Source: an uncultured Candidatus Saccharibacteria bacterium
GTDB taxonomy: Bacteria; Patescibacteriota; Minisyncoccia; Phycocordibacterales; DAORIS01
Reading direction: 5' to 3'
Assembly (NCBI GenBank): GCA_964644035.1
Contig: CAZXUH010000001.1
Coordinates: 461,720 to 525,719, forward strand
Length of the DNA stretch: 64,000 nt
Below, piece by piece: positions 9,832 through 58,547 of this stretch (position 1 is its first letter; each line of letters opens with the position of its first letter). Under the pieces are notes generated by a model that was not told where the DNA came from, ran no database searches, and worked only from the letters and a program-made list of their open reading frames with translations. Position numbers and translations under genes: made by a program.

Positions 9832-11076
9832 ATGAATGAAGATTGGGATGTAGTGGTTATTGGTGGCGGTCCTGCAGGTATGATGGCAGCCGGCAGAGCG
9901 GCAGAACGTGGTGCAAAAGTGCTACTTTTGGAGAAAAATGACAGCTTGGGAAAGAAGCTGCTCATCACAGGAGGCGGCAGATGCAATGTCACCAATGCCG
10001 AGCTCGACACCAGAAAGCTTTTGGCAAAATTCAAAGATAATGACAAATATCTTTTTTCTGCTTTTTCGCAATGGAGTGTAAAGGAAACACTGGATTTCTT
10101 TCACTTGAAGCAAATGGATACGAAAATAGAAAATCTATTGCGTGTATTCCCTGTCAGCAACAAATCTCAGTCTGTTTGGAATGTACTTGTAGAATATTTG
10201 CAGCAAGGCAAGGTTACCGTGCGATCAAATACTCCTGTTACCGGTTTTGAAACTGAAGGCAACAATATTGTCGCAGTAAAACTTAAAGGAAAAGAGAAAA
10301 TATCTGCCAAGCAATTTATTTTGGCTACTGGTGGCAAATCTCGTCCAGAAACAGGTTCGACTGGGGATGGTTTTGAATGGTTGAAACACATCGGACATTC
10401 TGTCGCCGAATCGGACGCAGCGCTCGTGCCAATTGCTATCAAAGATGAATGGGTCAAACGTCTGCAAGGCGTGACGCTACAGAATGCAAAAATCACTCTT
10501 TTGCAAAATGACGCCAAACAAGCCACGAGTGCTGGCCGAGTATTGTTTACGCATTTTGGAATTTCGGGTCCAACCATACTCAATATGAGTCGCGACGTGA
10601 GCGAACTTTTAAAATACGGCGACGTCGTAGTATCACTCGACATACTTCCCAACCTCGACTATGGTCAGCTCAATGAAAAGCTTCAAGAAGTGTTCAAAGA
10701 GCATAGCAATAAAAAATTCAAAAATAGTTTGAGTACTCTCGTCTCTCCTGCCCTCGCACCAATCGTTGTCGAGCTTTCAGGTATTGATCCTGAAACCTGG
10801 AGTCATAGTGTCACACGTGAACAGCGTCTCGAACTTGTACAATTTCTCAAGGCAATACCACTGCACGTCGAAGGATTGCTTGGGGTTGAAAAAGCAATCG
10901 TCACTTCAGGCGGCGTAAAGCTCGATGAAGTCGATTTCAAAACTATGCGTTCACGTCTTTTCCCAAATCTTCTTTTGGTTGGAGATATTTTAAATATCGA
11001 TCGCCCTTCTGGTGGCTACAGCCTACAACTATGCTGGACCACAGGTTTCGTAGCGGGCAATTCGATTACTCTATAG
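9832..11076 (+). CDS. HI0933/BaiN-like FAD-dependent oxidoreductase (NAD(P)/FAD-binding flavoprotein)
   Basis: DVVVIGGGPAGMMAAGRAA Rossmann motif and the overall HI0933-family pattern. Start taken at MNEDWD; the ORF track begins 18 nt earlier. Confidence 0.7.
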   Translation: MNEDWDVVVIGGGPAGMMAAGRAAERGAKVLLLEKNDSLGKKLLITGGGRCNVTNAELDTRKLLAKFKDNDKYLFSAFSQWSVKETLDFFHLKQMDTKIENLLRVFPVSNKSQSVWNVLVEYLQQGKVTVRSNTPVTGFETEGNNIVAVKLKGKEKISAKQFILATGGKSRPETGSTGDGFEWLKHIGHSVAESDAALVPIAIKDEWVKRLQGVTLQNAKITLLQNDAKQATSAGRVLFTHFGISGPTILNMSRDVSELLKYGDVVVSLDILPNLDYGQLNEKLQEVFKEHSNKKFKNSLSTLVSPALAPIVVELSGIDPETWSHSVTREQRLELVQFLKAIPLHVEGLLGVEKAIVTSGGVKLDEVDFKTMRSRLFPNLLLVGDILNIDRPSGGYSLQLCWTTGFVAGNSITL

Positions 11077-13903: not shown

Positions 13904-15139
13904 CTACTCGTATCGGAGAGCTTCCATCGGACTTTTTGCAGCCGCGCGTTTTGCGGGATAGATACCAAAGGCGAGACCGATAGCAGCTGAAACACCAAGA
14001 CCAAGGAGTGCTGCAGAGATTGGGAATGCAAATGTCCAACCAGCTGCGACATACGTACTCAGAACTATCGATGCCAGAAATGATATACCTGCTCCAAGCA
14101 AGATTCCGATCACACCACCAAGACCGGTGAGCATGACCGATTCAATAAGAAATTGAGAAAGAATATCACCTTCGGTCGCTCCGAGAGCTTTGCGAAGACC
14201 GATTTCACGCGTACGTTCTGTAACCGACACAAGCATGATATTCATAATACCAATACCTCCGACAACAAGAGAAATACCAGCAACAGATCCAAGGAGTGCT
14301 TTGAGCACGGTCGTAATTGTTCCAATGATTTCTACAGCATCGGCTTGAGTCGTAATATGAAAGTCATCATCTTTTGCATCAGTAATATCGTGAGACTCAC
14401 GAAGCGTGGCTTTGATATCAAAAAGTACACGAGGTAATATTTCTTTTGTTTCGGCGCGCACGATAATAGCATTGAAATGATCAGCGCCGCTGAGATATTG
14501 CTGTACGGTTGTATACGGAATGACAACCATTTTATCGACATTGAGAAGTGATTGGCCTTCTTTTGGAAATATACCGATCACCCTAAATGACTGATCTTTT
14601 ATTCTTATACTCTGCCCTATCGGATCGGATAGTCCGAAAATATCTTCTTTGATTTCTGCACCGAGCACCACGACACGTGATTTCTGCCTGACATCATCGA
14701 TAGTGAAAAATTCTCCAATATTTGGGTAGATCGTAAGAATATCTTCAAATACTTCAGACGCTCCAGTGACAGCTCCACGCTCTGTCTTGCCTTCATACAA
14801 AATAGTGACTGGCACCGTAACAAGCGGTGTCATATCTTTTACACCCTGGACATTTGAAGGTTTGCTGAGTGCATCGATATCTCTCTGTTTGAGAGAGTCT
14901 GTATAAAGTTCGGCATAATCGGACGGTCCGCTTGGCTGTTTGCCTGGTTCGATATTGATCGTTGTCGCACCAAGACCTTCTACTTGTTTAAGAATAAGAT
15001 TTTCTGCTCCCTGACCCATGGCCATGACGATGATGATCGATGTAATACCGATCACGATACCAAGAATCGTAAGAAGTGATCGAGATTTGTTTGTCGAAAG
15101 ACCAGTATATGCAGTTTTTACTCTGTGTTTGAGAAGCAT
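13904..15139 (-). CDS. MacB/FtsX-family ABC transporter permease (MacB periplasmic domain + FtsX-like 4-TM domain)
   Basis: 411 aa. N-terminal TM, large extracytoplasmic domain, C-terminal three-TM FtsX-like fold. Adjacent to a MacB-type ATPase. Confidence 0.8.
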   Translation of the reverse strand: MLLKHRVKTAYTGLSTNKSRSLLTILGIVIGITSIIIVMAMGQGAENLILKQVEGLGATTINIEPGKQPSGPSDYAELYTDSLKQRDIDALSKPSNVQGVKDMTPLVTVPVTILYEGKTERGAVTGASEVFEDILTIYPNIGEFFTIDDVRQKSRVVVLGAEIKEDIFGLSDPIGQSIRIKDQSFRVIGIFPKEGQSLLNVDKMVVIPYTTVQQYLSGADHFNAIIVRAETKEILPRVLFDIKATLRESHDITDAKDDDFHITTQADAVEIIGTITTVLKALLGSVAGISLVVGGIGIMNIMLVSVTERTREIGLRKALGATEGDILSQFLIESVMLTGLGGVIGILLGAGISFLASIVLSTYVAAGWTFAFPISAALLGLGVSAAIGLAFGIYPAKRAAAKSPMEALRYE

Positions 15140-32984: not shown

Positions 32985-33057
32985 GTCAGGGTAGCTCAGT
33001 CGGTAGAGCACAGGACTCATAAGCCTGGGGTCGTGGGTTCGATCCCCACCCCTGACA
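32985..33057 (+). tRNA. tRNA with CAT anticodon (elongator Met or Ile2)
   Basis: GTCAGGGTAGCTCAGTCGGTAGAGCACAGGACTCATAAGCCTGG...CCCTGACA forms a cloverleaf with one mismatch at 31:39. Confidence 0.75.
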
Positions 33058-33196
33058 CATTAAACTTTAGTCTCCTATTTTCCTTGGGGATCGAAAGCCG
33101 GAAGATAAGCTCCGGGGGAGCTTATCTGAGGCGGGGTCGCGACTTTTGCGAAGCAAAAAGTTGTGACCGATCCTCAACCTCACACTATCTTAGAAA

Positions 33197-51375: not shown

Positions 51376-51465
51376 GGTATATCTGCAATTGAACTTAGAA
51401 ATCCTTTGTGCTTATATATGCTCAGAACTGGATGAGTCCTACACCCCTAACAAAAGGAGAACCCT

Positions 51466-51816
51466 ATGCTCATCCGCATTTGTATTGTCGTTTTGGCGTT
51501 TTGCCTTTATGGCTGCAAATCGCAGCCTGAAGTCGTAATACCGACCACCTACGAGGTAGTGAAGAATAGACACTTCGTTGAATGCGATGAAATCCGAGAT
51601 CGGCTTACCAAGCCAATTTTTCTGAAAGGCCTTGCTGGCTATGCCAATGGATATGGCTTTCGACTGCAAGTCGTAGTCGTCAATGATGATAAGTACGGAG
51701 AGGTTATGGCTATCATGACCCTGGAAGAATCACAGCAACTGGCTGTATCTGTTCCAGGCAAAATGATATTCATCAGCACCGGCGCTAGTGAAAAAGCCCG
51801 AGAATTCCTCCCCTAG
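51466..51816 (+). CDS. Lipoprotein, hypothetical (GC-rich)
   Basis: Lipobox LYGC after a hydrophobic signal. Followed by terminator CCCGCGAGAAATCGCGGG. Confidence 0.45.
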   Translation: MLIRICIVVLAFCLYGCKSQPEVVIPTTYEVVKNRHFVECDEIRDRLTKPIFLKGLAGYANGYGFRLQVVVVNDDKYGEVMAIMTLEESQQLAVSVPGKMIFISTGASEKAREFLP

Positions 51817-51823
51817 CCACAGT

Positions 51824-51852
51824 CCCGCGAGAAATCGCGGGATTTGTTTTTC
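51824..51852 (+). terminator. Rho-independent terminator
   Basis: CCCGCG-AGAAAT-CGCGGG hairpin followed by ATTTGTTTTT. Confidence 0.6.
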
Positions 51853-51922
51853 GATAGACTAGCGAGAAATAATTTGTTACCTTTGCGTCAGAACAGACAT
51901 ACACTTACAGAAAGGGTTTCCA

Positions 51923-52306
51923 ATGCTAGATTCAGAATTCACGGGACGTATCCGGATTGTCACCACTCCTGCAGGAGAAGCACCTCTTTGGGTTCGAGAA
52001 GCTTGGGTTGGGCTCAGATTGCCTTGTTGGCCACTAGTAGGTCTCCCCAGCGGTCCTGAGGTCGGCGTTTTAAGTAGCAAAGAGGTCAATCACAATTGTT
52101 TTGTTTGTCATGTGCCTCAAGATGAAGCAATTGTAATTTTACGGAAAGAAAGACCTGAAGCCGCAAAATGGTGGGAAGAGAACAATTTTCCCCAACCTGG
52201 AAAAAGTTTCACTTTTAGGGAGGAGGAAATAAGGATGATCTGTGGTGTACGACGCACAGGAATCATCCATGTTACCGAAGAAATGATGGGTGACCCCAAT
52301 CGATAG
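51923..52306 (+). CDS. Hypothetical protein (GC-rich)
   Basis: 127 aa, no recognisable motif. Followed by a near-copy of the upstream terminator. Confidence 0.35.
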   Translation: MLDSEFTGRIRIVTTPAGEAPLWVREAWVGLRLPCWPLVGLPSGPEVGVLSSKEVNHNCFVCHVPQDEAIVILRKERPEAAKWWEENNFPQPGKSFTFREEEIRMICGVRRTGIIHVTEEMMGDPNR

Positions 52307-52321
52307 CCACAGAAGCACAAA

Positions 52322-52350
52322 TCCCCGCAAGAAATTGCGGGGATTTTATT
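52322..52350 (+). terminator. Rho-independent terminator (paralogous to the one at 51824)
   Basis: CCCCGCAAGAAATTGCGGGG followed by ATTTTATT. Shares the preceding TAGCCACAG with the 51824 terminator. Confidence 0.6.
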
Positions 52351-52577
52351 AAAAAGAACCCTGCCATTACAGCAGGGATTCACAACATTGTTAGAACTTT
52401 GACCAAACAAGTACGACCAGTACCATCAGCACAATTGCTTTGATGGAGATTGGCATCTTCGCAGTAGTCCGATTCCGAAGGTCGTAATACGACTTAATAC
52501 GTTGCCATTCATTGCGCAGCATATGTTCACCTCCTTTCAACTGCAGTCAATACTAGCACAAAGAAAAATAAAGACTA

Positions 52578-52596
52578 GCGGAGACGGCGAGATTCG
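52578..52596 (-). repeat. 19-nt duplicate of the tRNA-Ser 3' end (att-like direct repeat)
   Basis: GCGGAGACGGCGAGATTCG is identical to 52750-52768, which covers the acceptor and T-arm 3' half of tRNA-Ser. Confidence 0.6.
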
Positions 52597-52750
52597 GCTA
52601 CAGATACTTTTCTCGCCGTCGCTCGAAAAGTTCTGCAGCCCCGGCTCGGTATCGCTCGCTACTGCTCGCGATATACCTCCGCCTTTTCTCATCTTTCCAC
52701 CTCTCGACATCAGTTCTTCACCGAGCTTTGCTCGGTTCGAACTGCTGTTG

Positions 52751-52841
52751 CGGAGACGGCGAGATTCGAACTCGCGAGAGGCTTTTAGACCCCTACCTCG
52801 TTAGCAGTGAGGCGCTTTCGACCAGGCTCAGCCACGTCTCC
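52751..52841 (-). tRNA. tRNA-Ser (anticodon GCT), class II with long variable arm
   Basis: Reverse-complement GGAGACGTGGCTGAGCC...CTGCTAA...long variable arm...GCGAGTTCGAATCTCGCCGTCTCCG. Acceptor and T stems are perfect. Confidence 0.8.
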
Positions 52842-52933
52842 AGTTATTCGAGAATAGCACAAAAGCTGCCGAAATCACAAGAAAATATCATTGAAGGGCA
52901 GTACAGAGCTAGAAGGTAAGTTGAGAAATAATT

Positions 52934-54730
52934 TTAAGAAACTTTTTCGAGTTCATCGATCAGATTCTTAAAATGCACAATCACCGAAGAGAGTGATTCT
53001 TTCTTTTCGAGATCGAGTCCTGCTTTACGCAAAAGATTGAGAGGCCAGTCACTGCCACCTGAACGCAACATATTGAGATATGCTTCTCTTTCTTTTTCGC
53101 CACCACTCAGCACTTTTTGCGAAAGAGCAATAGCAGCAATCAAACCAGTCGCGTATTTGTACACATAAAAAGCTCGGTAGAAATGCGGTATGCGTAGACA
53201 TTCAAGCTCGAGTTCAGGATCAATCACAAAATCAGGACCAAAATACAATTCAAGCAGTGTTCGATATTCTTTTCTAAGCACATCTACCGTTAGTGGCTCC
53301 CCTTTTTCAGAAAGTTCATGTGTGCGTTTTTCAAATTCGGCAAACATAACCTGACGAATGATCGTCGTGCGTATTGCATCGACAGCATGATTGAGAAGAA
53401 ATGCTTTCTGCTTTTTGTCGGCTTTGGCAAGCAATGAATGCAACAGAAGCTGCTCATTGAACGTACTTGCAATCTCAGCTGTAAAGATCGGATAGCCAGC
53501 ACGCTGGAAAGGTTGATTTTTATTGGCCAGATAGGTGTGCATCGAATGCCCTGCCTCGTGAGCAAGCGTAAAGACCTGCTCAAGCACTTTCTCATCGAAG
53601 TTCATGAGAATATATGGCTGCGAATCATAGCTTCCCGAACTAAATGCACCTGAATGTTTGCCGATATTTGGATATCGATCGCACCAGCGAGCAGATGTCA
53701 GACCCTTGCTCAAAGCATCGGTATATTCTTTTCCCAATACTTTTGTTGCAGTAATCGTCATTTCCACAGCATCGTCCCATGTATGACTTTCTGCAGCATC
53801 GGGAAATATAGAGGTGTATACATCGTATTGATGCAGATCTTTTATATTGAGCTTGTCTTTTCTGATTTTGAGATAGCGATAGAGATCGGGCAGAAGCTTG
53901 TGTACGACATCGATCAGGTTTTCATAGACTTTTGGATTGATATTGTCTGCAAAAAGGCTCGCGCCGAGCGAACTTTTATACTTTCTAACCTTTGAATAAT
54001 AAATATCAGTCTGCACTGAAGCATTGTAGGTAGCGGCAATAGTATTTTTATGATGTTCGTATTCTTTGAAATACGCATGGAACATATCCTTGCGCACAGA
54101 GCGTACTGGATGACGCAACACTTGAGAAAACGTGCTGTGGTTCACATCTATCACATTACCCTTATCATCTTTGATCTGTCCCCACTTCAAATCGACATCA
54201 TTGAGCTGTCTAAAAATAGAATCGGGTCCCCCGCTGATCTGACCCTGCATAGCCAAAAGCGTTTCTTCAGGCAGACTCAGACTATGCGGTTTGTATCTAA
54301 TGATTTTTTCTAGCTGCAATTTCCATTCTTTCAAAAGAGGACTTTTTATAAATAATGTTATTTTTGCACTTGGAATGGCAAGAATTTCTGGACGAATAAA
54401 ACTTGAAAGTTCACCCTGTCTTGTCGCCACATGCTCAAATCGACCCTTCATACGCAGGTAGATAGAATTACCCTCATCTTCTGAACCCTTTAGAAAAGCA
54501 TAAGTGCCCAAATTGTCTCCTTCCCTCTCAATAGCGGCACTAAACTCAAACAGAGCGACGAGTTGCTTAGCACTTTTACTTAGCGTACCTTTGTATTTTT
54601 TATACCCCTCAATCTTTTTTGACCACTTAGCAAAAGCACTTTCCCAGGCCTGATCGCTCTTGTACATACCCGAAAGATCCCATGTATTGGCTGCTGAAAC
54701 ATCCTTTCTCTGTTTGAGTTTGTCTGTCAT
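52934..54730 (-). CDS. pepF: Oligoendopeptidase F (M3B family zinc metallopeptidase)
   Basis: HEAGHSMH zinc-binding HEXXH. About 600 aa, typical PepF length and pattern. Confidence 0.85.
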   Translation of the reverse strand: MTDKLKQRKDVSAANTWDLSGMYKSDQAWESAFAKWSKKIEGYKKYKGTLSKSAKQLVALFEFSAAIEREGDNLGTYAFLKGSEDEGNSIYLRMKGRFEHVATRQGELSSFIRPEILAIPSAKITLFIKSPLLKEWKLQLEKIIRYKPHSLSLPEETLLAMQGQISGGPDSIFRQLNDVDLKWGQIKDDKGNVIDVNHSTFSQVLRHPVRSVRKDMFHAYFKEYEHHKNTIAATYNASVQTDIYYSKVRKYKSSLGASLFADNINPKVYENLIDVVHKLLPDLYRYLKIRKDKLNIKDLHQYDVYTSIFPDAAESHTWDDAVEMTITATKVLGKEYTDALSKGLTSARWCDRYPNIGKHSGAFSSGSYDSQPYILMNFDEKVLEQVFTLAHEAGHSMHTYLANKNQPFQRAGYPIFTAEIASTFNEQLLLHSLLAKADKKQKAFLLNHAVDAIRTTIIRQVMFAEFEKRTHELSEKGEPLTVDVLRKEYRTLLELYFGPDFVIDPELELECLRIPHFYRAFYVYKYATGLIAAIALSQKVLSGGEKEREAYLNMLRSGGSDWPLNLLRKAGLDLEKKESLSSVIVHFKNLIDELEKVS

Positions 54731-54797
54731 ACGAAACCACTATAGCAAAAATCCCGCCGAAGCGGGACTTTTGACGATTCTGACAAATATGCAGAAA

Positions 54798-55436
54798 CTA
54801 TTTTGCCAAGAACTTGTAGAAATTCATACCGATCACTGCACCGACAATCGGAGCGAGACCGTAGACAATGTTGAGAGTGCCTGCTGTCAAAGCTGCTGCA
54901 GGGTTGAGGATACCAAATGCACCGCCAAATGAAGCGATGATTGAGCCCAAAAGAAGAGCAGTACCAATAACCATGCCATGCATCGATGTATGAGGCTTCT
55001 CATAGACTACTGATGCAATACCAAAGGCAAAGATGATTGTACCGATTGTCTCGGCTGCAAATATCTTCAAGCTTACGCCAGCCATTGAAGGAGCAATAGG
55101 AAGCTTCATAGCCAAGAAGTATGATGCAAGTCCAAATGCAAGCACTGCACCTACAAACTGAGCAATGATGTATGCAAGAGATTCCTTGGGAGTAATCTTC
55201 TTGACCGAAAGAAGACCGAGCGTGACCGCAGGGTTTATGTGTGCACCCGAGATCGATCCAATCGAGTAGACAATGAATCCGACGACGATAGCCGCCAAGA
55301 ATGGAGTAAAGGCTGCAGCATTGCTGCGTGAAGCCAAAAGGATAATAAGAGCAAGCATGAACGTACCGAACGCTTCTGCTATGTATCTTTTCAACTGAAC
55401 TATGTTTATGTTTATCATATTAATATTAATTACCAA
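54798..55436 (-). CDS. Aquaporin/glycerol-facilitator family channel (MIP)
   Basis: Two NPA boxes (HINPAVTLG and ILNPAAAL) and six TM helices. Unusual MININI repeats at the N-terminus. Confidence 0.85.
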   Translation of the reverse strand: MVININMININIVQLKRYIAEAFGTFMLALIILLASRSNAAAFTPFLAAIVVGFIVYSIGSISGAHINPAVTLGLLSVKKITPKESLAYIIAQFVGAVLAFGLASYFLAMKLPIAPSMAGVSLKIFAAETIGTIIFAFGIASVVYEKPHTSMHGMVIGTALLLGSIIASFGGAFGILNPAAALTAGTLNIVYGLAPIVGAVIGMNFYKFLAK

Positions 55437-55464
55437 TTATCTGCCCTTATAGTATAGTACGAGC

Positions 55465-56271
55465 GTGCTAGACTTCAAAACCTTCAAAAAGACCATTTGG
55501 CAACACTATAAAAAGTACGGCCGCGATTTTCCGTGGAGAAATACCCGCAATCCGTACAGGATTTTGGTATCCGAAATCATGCTTCAGCAGACGCAGGCCG
55601 ATAGAGTGATACGAAAATACGAAGCTTTTATAAAAAGGTTTCCTGATTTCAAATCTCTAGCTCACGCTTCCCTCTCCGATGTCCTGACACTCTGGAAAGG
55701 TCTTGGATACAACAGACGAGCACTCAACCTTCAGCGAGCTGCACAGATAGTACACACCAATTTCAAAGGAAAACTACCCAAAGACAGAGAAACTCTTCTG
55801 TCACTACCTAGTATCGGACCAGCCACTGCCGGCGATATCCGTGCTTTTGCTTGGAATATGCCTGATATAGTTATAGAAACCAATATTCGTAGTGTCTATA
55901 TTCATTTTTTCTTTAAGGACAGTAAAGAAGTACATGACAAAGATATTTTGGTACTTATAGAAAAAACCGTCGATCAGAAAAATCCCCGCGAATGGTATTT
56001 TGCTCTCATGGACTATGGAAATCTACTCAAAAGGACTGTTGGTAATGCATCGAGACAGAGCATTCATTATAAAAAGCAGTCTTCTTTCAAGGATTCCAAT
56101 AGAAAATTGCGCGCAGACATTCTATTTCTTTTGCACGATAAAAAACGGATTACTGAAAAAAGCATAGTAGAACATTTCAACGATGAAAGAACGCTCAAGA
56201 ATCTATCAGCCCTTTCTAAAGAAGGATTTGTGAAGAAGCAAGGAGCAACGTGGTATATTGTCGGTACATGA
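55465..56271 (+). CDS. HhH-GPD base-excision DNA glycosylase (MutY/Nth-like, no Fe-S cysteine cluster)
   Basis: LVSEIMLQQTQ...LPSIGPATAGDIRAFAW is a helix-hairpin-helix GPD motif. No C-x6-C-x2-C-x5-C cluster. Confidence 0.7.
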   Translation: MLDFKTFKKTIWQHYKKYGRDFPWRNTRNPYRILVSEIMLQQTQADRVIRKYEAFIKRFPDFKSLAHASLSDVLTLWKGLGYNRRALNLQRAAQIVHTNFKGKLPKDRETLLSLPSIGPATAGDIRAFAWNMPDIVIETNIRSVYIHFFFKDSKEVHDKDILVLIEKTVDQKNPREWYFALMDYGNLLKRTVGNASRQSIHYKKQSSFKDSNRKLRADILFLLHDKKRITEKSIVEHFNDERTLKNLSALSKEGFVKKQGATWYIVGT

Positions 56272-58464: not shown

Positions 58465-58537
58465 GCGCGTGTAGCTCAGTTGGTAGAGCAGCCGTCTTAT
58501 ACACGGCCGGTCCCTGGTTCGAGTCCAGGCACGCGCA
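58465..58537 (+). tRNA. tRNA-Ile (anticodon TAT, decoding AUA)
   Basis: GCGCGTGTAGCTCAGTTGGTAGAGCAGCCGTCTTATACACGGC...CACGCGCA. Anticodon stem is perfect, loop is CU-UAU-AC with A37. Confidence 0.75.
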
Positions 58538-58547
58538 CCGATAGAAG

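Follow-up and report, generated by a model that had tools for sequence, protein, structure and literature searches.

tRNA genes are classic landing sites of mobile DNA, and to our knowledge the agents known to use them are integrase-carrying islands. In the stretch of DNA analysed here (the window, 64 kb in length), the 3' end of a tRNA-Ser(GCU) gene is followed at a short distance by a second copy of itself, which raises the question of what lies between the two copies and how the arrangement arose. The original prediction regarded it as a scar of integration or excision. The window is ordinary chromosome, with type IV pilus genes and genes for ComF, PepF, an MIP channel and an endonuclease III-like protein, together with those for RecG, FtsH, GatA, RF2 and ABC transporters. 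The best named relatives of the GatA protein are from Candidatus Paceibacterota and Patescibacteria MAGs (63-70% identity).

The repeat and the element behind tRNA-Ser(GCU)

The exact 19-mer GCGGAGACGGCGAGATTCG was found twice on the plus strand of the window, at the sites designated X1 and X2 in Table 1, and the duplicate of the tRNA 3' end was as exact as had been predicted. When the sequence was shuffled with its dinucleotides preserved, two or more matches were obtained in 0 of 100 shuffles. No further copy was present in the window with up to three mismatches, nor with up to five. As the tRNA-Ser(GCU) gene lies on the minus strand, the 19-mer reads CGAATCTCGCCGTCTCCGC in the tRNA sense, and spans C56 of the T-loop, the 3' strands of the T-stem and acceptor stem, the discriminator G and one extra C. 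The two copies have the same orientation, are 172 nt apart from start to start with 153 nt in between, and the second copy is on the 3' (distal) side of the tRNA gene. The coordinates and the strand of the tRNA thus bear out the orientation and distal position claimed beforehand.

Examination of the intervening sequence indicated that a non-coding element of approximately 170 nt is attached to the 3' end of tRNA-Ser(GCU), and that the 19-nt repeat forms its 3' arm. In the tRNA sense, the order of its parts is X1, a spacer hairpin (H0), X', an AAAG linker, the hairpin H2, a G-run, the hairpin H3 and X2. The 153 nt between the copies, folded as RNA, gave a free energy of -82.5 kcal/mol (z -6.85). 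H0 resembles a GCAAACUGCUUUGC hairpin found in the same position in three related loci (L117, L186 and L211). X' copies the tRNA 3' end inversely, from the T-loop into the acceptor strand, and intact versions of it, GCGAGAUUCGAA, are present in L113, L117 and L152. In both the minimum free energy (MFE) fold and the centroid fold, X' pairs with X2, partly via G-U pairs, to form a closing helix, P1. A helix matching the T-stem/acceptor sequence of the tRNA therefore clamps a core consisting of H2 and H3. H2 carries tandem G-A pairs and is k-turn-like, and the apical loop of H3 holds GACGGCGAGA (52611-52620), the complement of UCUCGCCGUC in each of the X copies. A covariance model of H2 and H3 built from six copies (CM R1) matched the element behind tRNA-Ser over 52591-52686 with 78.7 bits.

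Table 1. Features of the two elements and their surroundings in the window
Feature	Position	Strand	Basis
Second family member, behind tRNA-Met (32985-33058)	33084-33184	+	CM R1
H2 of the tRNA-Met member	33097-33132	+	
H3 of the tRNA-Met member	33135-33168	+	
Segment absent from syntenic L093	51376-52749		tblastx and blastn collinearity
Only minus-strand terminator called, after the small ORF	52359-52377	-	Consensus scan
Small ORF, 43 aa from MLRNEW, hydrophobic C-terminal part	52391-52522	-	
U-rich tract after P1, then promoter-like motif UUUGUGCUAGUAUUGA	52547-52577	-	Direct repeat D2
Right arm X2, exact direct copy of the 3' 19 nt of the tRNA, 3' strand of P1	52578-52596	-	
H3, long hairpin following the G-run	52596-52640	-	CM R1, covariation, inverted repeats I3 and I4
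H2, k-turn-like hairpin, GGC-G-GA-(stem-loop)-GA-GCC	52643-52683	-	Motif in 9/9 family members
Left arm X', GGUGGAAAGAUGAGA, degenerate inverted copy of the tRNA 3' end	52687-52701	-	MFE and centroid fold
Spacer hairpin H0, directly after the tRNA, apex CCGAGCAAAGCUCGG	52708-52747	-	MFE fold
Repeat copy X1, last 19 nt of tRNA-Ser(GCU)	52750-52768	-	Exact 19-mer
tRNA-Ser(GCU) gene	52750-52841	-	ARAGORN; Rfam tRNA, 52.8 bits

The promoter-like motif that follows the U-rich tract is identical at 13 of 16 positions to a motif just upstream of the tRNA (52848-52863). A consensus scan for intrinsic terminators made no call at P1 and the U-rich tract, although a branched stem and then a U-rich tract are visible there, and called none in the part of the window that separates the tRNA from the element. 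The element is therefore probably transcribed as a trailer of the tRNA. With Rfam 15, only eight tRNAs passed the gathering thresholds in the whole window and the element was unmatched; at E<=10 over 52300-52950 nothing relevant to the element was obtained, the sub-threshold matches (a permuted tmRNA with 15 bits, Acido-1 and sX4) being noise.

The interval of 153 nt is too short to encode an integrase, and none was detected among the 20 window ORFs scanned. Its sole ORF is an unconserved frame of 57 aa (52537-52710, minus strand). We rejected this frame as coding because homologues of the element differ by changes that compensate within hairpins and by indels not divisible by three. The small ORF further downstream is preceded, 7 nt upstream, by a strong Shine-Dalgarno sequence, GGAGGUG, and has no Pfam match. 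It is not kept beside the element in relatives; other genes lie downstream in L113, L117, L144 and L152.

A family of elements with a conserved fold

The window contains two copies of the element, both behind tRNAs. The second, behind tRNA-Met, was outside the training set of CM R1 and matched the model over 33106-33173 (27 bits, E 2e-7). Its left arm, GGGGAUCGAA, is the reverse complement of UUCGAUCCCC in tRNA-Met, and its right arm, CGAUCCUCAACCUCACA, repeats the 3' end of tRNA-Met in degenerate form. This member folds at -52.2 kcal/mol (z -6.9).

We then examined other genomes. A metagenome scan with the 19-mer gave 120 loci, most of which were ordinary tRNA-Ser genes, and double matches at several of them were due to true tRNA-Ser genes in tandem. 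A lone tRNA-Ser followed by an orphan second copy of the 19-mer was found in L112, L123, L144, L164, L177, L193 and L196. Searches with nhmmer identified homologues at the same tRNA-Ser(GCU) 3' end in L113 (E 4e-10), L097, L204 and L144. L113, L152 and L204 are syntenic with the window via RecG or PilM. In intact copies the left arm consists of GCGGAGACG, a hairpin and GCGAGAUUCGAA, which together are the exact reverse complement of UUCGAAUCUCGC...CGUCUCCGC, split by the hairpin. L117 and L152 have one or two related units whose right arms are cut to 8 nt. A scan of GTDB genomes with PepF gave a best match of only 48% identity, and consequently no relative was found by that scan; the contig carrying the nearest PepF homologue (P0002, 68%) ends inside a convergent tRNA-Ser.

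Further copies outside the training set were recognized elsewhere, and not only behind tRNA-Ser. L152 carries one behind tRNA-Ile (44.6 bits with CM R1), and this tRNA is positionally equal to the tRNA-Ile(UAU) of the window, directly after RecG. The copy is without X2, and its X' pairs with the tRNA end and the trailer. Another copy, with weak arms, was present behind tRNA-Val in L186 (17.8 bits). Tandem copies were found in L211, an IMG/VR contig of approximately 60% G+C (31.9 bits); of four matches to the core pattern in viral contigs, only L211 was upheld by the covariance model. The one match of the 19-mer itself in viral contigs was considered as an attP site and rejected, as it was a genuine tRNA-Ser(UGA) in the tRNA cluster of a 198-kb contig. 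L210 displays the same architecture with no match to CM R1. The 3' end of its tRNA-Ser(GGA) differs (CGAAUCCCUCACCCUCCG), and behind it come GUGAGGGAUUCGAA, which repeats this end inversely, then a structured middle and lastly a direct repeat; this right arm ends in GCCA even though the tRNA gene is without CCA. In L113 and L152 the core is also present upstream of tRNA-Ser, at the D-loop position within a decaying pseudo-5' half. Tandem arrays occur in L117, L152, L196 and L211, and in L177 a GIY-YIG ORF lies between the two 19-mer copies. Clear arms always correspond to the tRNA beside them, with GCGAGAUUCGAA at tRNA-Ser, GGGGAUCGAA at tRNA-Met and GUGAGGGAUUCGAA at the tRNA-Ser of L210. We conclude that Paceibacteria-type Patescibacteria have a family of small elements, structured and roughly 100-170 nt in size, that stand behind tRNA genes, the module being located at tRNA 3' ends and also inside 5' pseudo-halves.

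The arms bear on the possibility that the element is a pseudo-tRNA, a degenerate tandem duplicate of tRNA-Ser in which the 5' strand of the acceptor stem, a hairpin resembling a variable arm and a T-arm with a loop expanded by insertion have been retained. The left side in L113, L117, L144 and L152, (GC)GGAGACG followed by a hairpin and GCGAG..., does resemble the 5' strand of an acceptor stem, then a long variable arm and the 5' strand of a T-stem, and partial 5' tRNA copies are present upstream of the gene in L093, L113, L144 and L152. However, the left arms read GCGAG-A-UUCGAA, GGGGAUCGAA and GUGAGGGAUUCGAA, where a direct copy would be GCGAGUUCGAAU or GUGGGUUCGAUC. They hold the complement of the T-loop, including the extra A in GCGAG-A-UUCGAA and, in the Met member, AUCGAA and not UUCGAU, and therefore represent an inverted repeat and not duplicated tRNA 5' strands. 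In addition, no tRNA covariance-model match is listed for the element at E<=10, where three lower-scoring overlaps of the same clan are not itemised, and we found no trace of either a D-arm or an anticodon arm. To account for one core behind tRNAs for Ser, Met, Ile and Val, a single unlikely history would have to be invoked four times. A degenerate duplication of this kind, which the original prediction had named as its own counter-explanation, is already contradicted by the orientation of the left arm as read from the sequence, and we consider it highly improbable.

The fold of the core was then examined in detail. In an alignment of H3, 92.5% of cells were paired, and compensatory change was observed in nine of the 12 pairs. 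None of 500 shuffles scored as high, and sliding the pairing partner lowered the pairing to 36-46%. A G-U pair is conserved in eight of ten H3 copies. As for H2, the motif GNC-(G)-GA...GA-GN'C-N-GGG is present in all nine members, and its three-pair C-stem covaries (GGC/GCC, GCC/GGC and GAC/GUC). A kink-turn is composed of a C-stem, a 3-nt bulge, tandem sheared G-A pairs and an NC-stem. The H2 pattern GNC-(G)-GA...GA-GN'C is kept in 9/9 members with a bulge of 0-1 nt, a likeness to the kink-turn that is drawn from sequence only. In 11 of 11 copies the tRNA-sense strand was more stable than its complement, by 1-16 kcal/mol. As the fold is specific to this strand, the selected form should be an RNA or one strand of DNA. 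Arms that have drifted (the left arm of the Ser element and the right arm of the Met element in the window) have changed by transitions with which pairing is kept, by way of G-U pairs. The family is thus conserved, folded in a strand-specific manner and linked to tRNAs, and its clear arms copy the adjacent tRNA.

These features raised the possibility that the element is a vertically inherited functional RNA, co-transcribed with the tRNA and without mobility of its own, a reading that we regard as possible but rather doubtful. In one version, the X'/X2 helix would mimic the acceptor/T-arm 'top half' of a tRNA, and RNase P, RNase Z and CCA-adding enzymes would define the ends of a stable sRNA that bears the core of H2 and H3. 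In another, the helix and the U-tract would act as a branched terminator or attenuator, with X' pairing either with the tRNA 3' end or with X2. The copies behind other tRNAs would have come from rare duplication. The preference for the sense strand and the conserved G-U pairs are in agreement with an RNA, as are the k-turn-like motif and the G-run, which are kept across copies of very different base composition. At the syntenic site, the element retains approximately 70% identity, with compensatory changes, between lineages with approximately 60% protein identity. The lack of a terminator call between tRNA and element in the window, the U-rich tracts after P1 in the window, L113, L117 and L144, and the GCCA at the end of the L210 right arm also fit this reading. 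On the other hand, a terminator-like hairpin with a U-run does stand between tRNA and element in L117, L144 and L152, and the variable copy number, the tandem arrays and the cores inside decaying upstream pseudo-tRNAs speak against such an RNA. The arms are identical to the neighbouring tRNA in sequence and not just in shape, which suggests copying at the DNA level. The distribution of the element among genomes, described below, also speaks against it.

Several other assignments were considered and rejected. A hammerhead ribozyme would be represented by just one chance CUGAUG. A retroviral-type primer-binding site was dismissed as there is no TGG complementary to CCA and the boundary is not at position 58/59. 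A T-box does not agree with a position downstream of the tRNA or with downstream genes that vary between relatives. Ends of IS200/IS605-type elements or a TnpB guide RNA were discarded, as no such gene is nearby and such elements make no direct repeats.

Occupied sites, empty sites and the origin of the element

The closest syntenic relative, L093, is collinear with the window over 41.3-51.4 kb and RecG. Its tRNA-Ser is 88% identical to that of the window and is without the element; only a 43-nt hairpin separates it from comF, where the window has an extra 1.37 kb. This additional segment contains the element, the small ORF, ORF127 (51923-52306) and the lipoprotein-like ORF116 (51466-51816). 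The tRNAs of L126 and L108 are identical to that of L144 and also lack the element, and the genes that follow the tRNA in L126 and X2 in L144 are orthologous (59% identity). The tRNAs that are occupied differ by genome, tRNA-Met being occupied in the window and not in L215, L217 and L219, and tRNA-Ile only in L152. Both the empty sites in L093, L126 and L108 and this variation in occupied tRNAs count against a vertically inherited RNA. Occupied and empty genomes share approximately 60% protein identity, and with this moderate divergence both gain and loss of the element are possible. Loss through recombination between the direct repeats would be precise. The predicted geometry, a direct repeat flanking an insertion at a tRNA 3' end, is what we observe, and empty sites are present in related genomes.

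Taking into account this geometry, X1 and X2 could be the attL and attR sites of a tyrosine-integrase island or prophage that was excised imprecisely or has decayed to 153 bp, and ORF116, ORF127 and the small ORF might be leftover cargo. A tRNA 3'-end direct repeat distal to the gene is classical att geometry, and the window is longer than L093 by 1.37 kb on this side of the tRNA. Homologues of ORF127 are non-syntenic yet near tRNA-Ser genes, and in L209 and L210 they lie among small accessory genes. In L166, an unrelated contig, an orphan 19-mer copy was found immediately upstream of a Phage_integrase gene, and L093 carries 3'-half repeats of tRNA-Ile(UAU) that start in the anticodon loop, as is typical of integrase crossovers. 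The latter two observations indicate that tRNA genes are real recombination hot spots in these communities. Nevertheless, the DNA between the repeats is conserved and covarying and is found behind other tRNAs with matching arms, an outcome that decay would not yield. The accessory ORFs lie outside X1-X2, and no third copy of the 19-mer with up to five mismatches bounds the 1.37-kb segment. No integrase was found among the 20 window ORFs or in the related loci carrying the element. The region of 51.4-52.45 kb had been described as GC-rich, but its GC content of 0.455 is not unusual against a window mean of 0.428 (sd 0.021), 11.6% of segments of equal length being as high. For the 153-nt interval, the reading as an island scar is largely refuted, and we consider it improbable. 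Of the two origins offered in the original prediction, a very small satellite comes close, whereas the remnant of an excised or decayed integrative element does not agree with a conserved, covarying and strand-specific module that stands behind several tRNAs without an integrase.

The reading that we favour, with a confidence that stops somewhat short of even, is that of a non-autonomous hairpin element inserted at tRNA 3' ends. It would spread, or would formerly have spread, by recombination of its own X arm with the identical stretch of a tRNA gene, and this would rebuild an intact tRNA and leave X1...X2 as a flanking direct repeat. In formal terms this is similar to an integron cassette, in which the folded attC site has one inverse and one direct core site. 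The recombinase would act in trans. Precise loss would join tRNA-Ser directly to TAGTCTTTATT, and a circular or tandem form would join H3-X to the spacer AACAGCAG. The tandem arrays in L117, L152, L196 and L211 and the GIY-YIG-bearing unit in L177 fit such a cassette-like picture. No recombinase, transposase or reverse transcriptase was found beside any copy, so that we infer mobility from distribution alone, just as we infer the mechanism of insertion, transcription and the cellular role. The right arms of only 8 nt in L117 and L152 and the copy without X2 behind tRNA-Ile in L152 indicate that the direct repeat is not an invariable product. A circular intermediate of approximately 170 bp in the form of duplex DNA is implausible, and just two copies were seen in the 64 kb of the window. 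The tRNA-Ser site is accounted for just as well by vertical inheritance, with the element lost now and then via the 19-nt repeats, and both the loops, conserved in sequence, and the k-turn-like motif are features more often associated with functional RNAs than with sites of recombination. The two readings, mobile element and functional RNA, are not mutually exclusive.

In either case, the module seen at this locus, in Patescibacteria with their reduced genomes, combines inverted and direct copies of the 3' end of its host tRNA with a fold that covaries, is specific to one strand and is kept across diverged lineages. Should it be mobile, it would represent a minimal element directed at tRNAs, with arms that match the target and change along with it, and would be relevant to the encoding of site specificity and to the question why repeats of short tRNA fragments are so frequent around tRNA genes in these genomes. 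Should it be an RNA, it would represent a new non-coding RNA that mimics tRNA, from organisms that are almost unstudied. Short duplications of tRNA ends in such genomes should not automatically be taken as prophage scars.

Comparison with known systems

Our literature search found no description of the element, and a paper on group I introns in tRNA genes of Patescibacteria makes no mention of tRNA-Ser or duplications (PMC13011429). The element can be compared with four kinds of known systems.

With integrase islands and prophages, which are bounded by attL and attR, the element shares the distal direct repeat of a tRNA 3' end, the intact tRNA, the empty sites and the variable neighbourhood. 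Williams is said to have surveyed the sublocations of integration in tRNA and tmRNA genes, in NAR in 2002. Unlike the islands, the element has an interval of only 153 nt without an integrase, is conserved and structured rather than decayed, contains the att sequence in inverted form as well, and is found again behind other tRNAs with arms that match them.

The layout also resembles that of an integron cassette with its attC site. The order core, cargo, inverse core, structured middle and core corresponds to X1, spacer, X', H2/H3 and X2, and a strand-specific hairpin, tandem arrays and an occasional ORF-bearing unit (GIY-YIG, L177) are further points in common; this is a resemblance only. In contrast to integrons, the element has no IntI (none was found), attI or Pc. 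The GTTRRRY core is absent, and the junction/T-loop reads GTTCGAA. The element is anchored at a tRNA gene, the sequence of its hairpin middle is conserved and its arms vary with the target.

MITEs are characterized by constant terminal inverted repeats, short target-site duplications and many dispersed copies. As in MITE/REP repeats and CIMEs (cis-mobilisable att-flanked elements), the element is small, non-coding and non-autonomous, has inverted terminal arms, occurs in more than one copy per genome and displays presence/absence variation. Its arms differ from those of a MITE in that they are not constant and copy the adjacent tRNA, so far next to tRNA genes only, and it is flanked by 8-19 nt of tRNA sequence and not by a short target duplication.

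Finally, the bacterial Y RNA YrlA is described as a tRNA-mimicking non-coding RNA (PMC4201824). The element has in common with Y RNAs and tRNA minihelices an acceptor/T-arm-like helix placed on another structured module, which might plausibly be handled by tRNA-processing enzymes. It differs from Y RNAs in having no T-loop (the residues are base-paired) and no D-arm, in not being located beside rsr and in matching no Rfam family, and its arm is the neighbouring tRNA's own sequence and not a generic tRNA shape.

A more far-reaching interpretation, which we put forward as unlikely but worth considering, is a new class of element in Patescibacteria with a two-hairpin core (the k-turn-like H2 and H3) and a clamp helix that is rewritten for each tRNA, so as to copy the 3' strand of its acceptor/T-arm. 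It would be either a retargetable hairpin attachment site or an RNA that mimics the top half of a tRNA, and would insert at tRNA genes via a folded single strand, regenerating the tRNA and sometimes carrying cargo in arrays of mini-cassettes. Taken against the systems above, the element is best described as a variant of known small tRNA-associated elements, with a real chance of representing a new class.

Loop motif, promoter-like motif and a second element copy

The apical loop of H3, the long hairpin of the structured element behind tRNA-Ser(GCU), carries the sequence GACGGCGAGA. Since this sequence is complementary both to the tRNA 3' end (X1) and to its direct copy (X2), an alternative, minihelix-like fold can be drawn. 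In element copies behind other tRNAs, a related motif, CGACGGCG, turns up again in the loop of H2 or of H3, and the loop motif may thus belong to the core itself instead of originating from the Ser arm. Another motif, TTTGTGCTAnTnTnGA, was found twice at this locus and is probably a local promoter consensus. The coordinates of these features are listed together with those of other features discussed below.

Features of the window and homologous ORFs
Feature	Position	Strand	Remark
GACGGCGAGA in H3 apical loop	52611-52620		perfect complement to 10 nt of X1 and of X2
TTTGTGCTAnTnTnGA (extended -10-like TGnTAnnnT)	52848-52863	minus	just upstream of tRNA-Ser
TTTGTGCTAnTnTnGA, second occurrence	52547-52562	minus	just downstream of X2, ahead of small ORF
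Second copy of structured element	33084-33184	+	behind tRNA-Met 32985-33058
ORF127	51923-52306	+	
ORF127 homologues	L209 5001-5348; L210 5001-5384		two unrelated contigs
PepF	52934-54730	minus	
tRNA-Ile, anticodon UAU	58465-58539	+	directly after recG

The second copy of the element has arms that match tRNA-Met. It had escaped the original prediction because its direct repeat is degenerate. In three relatives (L215, L217 and L219), the tRNA-Met pair is inverted with respect to gatA, and a search of these relatives with the covariance model of the H2-H3 core gave no match.

Gene content around tRNA-Ser

Comparison with L093, the closest syntenic relative, indicated differences on both sides of the tRNA-Ser gene. 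L093 (compared region 10158-10202) does not have a 1.37-kb segment of the window (51376-52749) that contains the element together with a small membrane ORF, ORF127 and the lipoprotein-like ORF116. Beyond the opposite end of the tRNA gene, L093 also lacks the PepF-MIP-EndoIII block (window 52934-56271), and an unrelated stretch of approximately 790 nt is present in its place. No Pfam domain was identified in ORF127. As is the case for ORF127 itself, its two homologues have tRNA-Ser genes within a few kilobases, and their neighbors are small accessory genes (NUDIX, DUF3850, DUF488, HTH). Concerning PepF, one relative was found at 68%, and the next-nearest homologues bearing organism names (56-59%) are from Planctomycetota (Tepidisphaeraceae, Phycisphaerae) and not Patescibacteria, which suggests that the gene was acquired horizontally.

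Partial tRNA copies and tRNA-Ser(ACU) in relatives

In L113, L152, L144 and L093, partial 5' copies of tRNA-Ser(GCU) (GGAGACGTGTCAGAGTG... or GGAGACGTGGCTGAGC...) precede the intact gene by 95-170 nt; the window harbors no such copy upstream of its tRNA-Ser(GCU). In the pseudo-halves of L113 and L152, the H2-H3 core occupies the position of the D-loop, and comparison of the two loci shows compensatory changes. At 14391-14681, L093 also contains the same tRNA-Ile(UAU) as the window, followed by two partial 3'-half copies that begin in the anticodon loop, ~60 and ~190 nt downstream of the tRNA.

A serine tRNA with A34 is unusual in bacteria. ARAGORN called a tRNA-Ser with anticodon ACU in L085 (11840-11894), L097, L117, L126, L143, L144, L168 and L180, often adjoining tRNA-Ser(GCU). 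The window contains no tRNA-Ser(ACU).

Nuclease and integrase genes at tRNA-Ser ends

ORFs with a GIY-YIG domain (Pfam E 1e-13) were identified at two tRNA-Ser(GGA) loci. In L177 (3-430) the ORF lies between the tRNA 3' end and its hairpin-preceded duplicate, and in L164 (107-400) just after both. These positions suggest cargo-bearing units, or a homing nuclease tied to such sites. On an unrelated contig, L166 (662-2035), a tyrosine integrase gene is directly preceded by an orphan copy of the 19-mer, identical to the one that forms the tRNA-Ser 3' end in the window; this copy is a classical att site using the same tRNA-Ser end.
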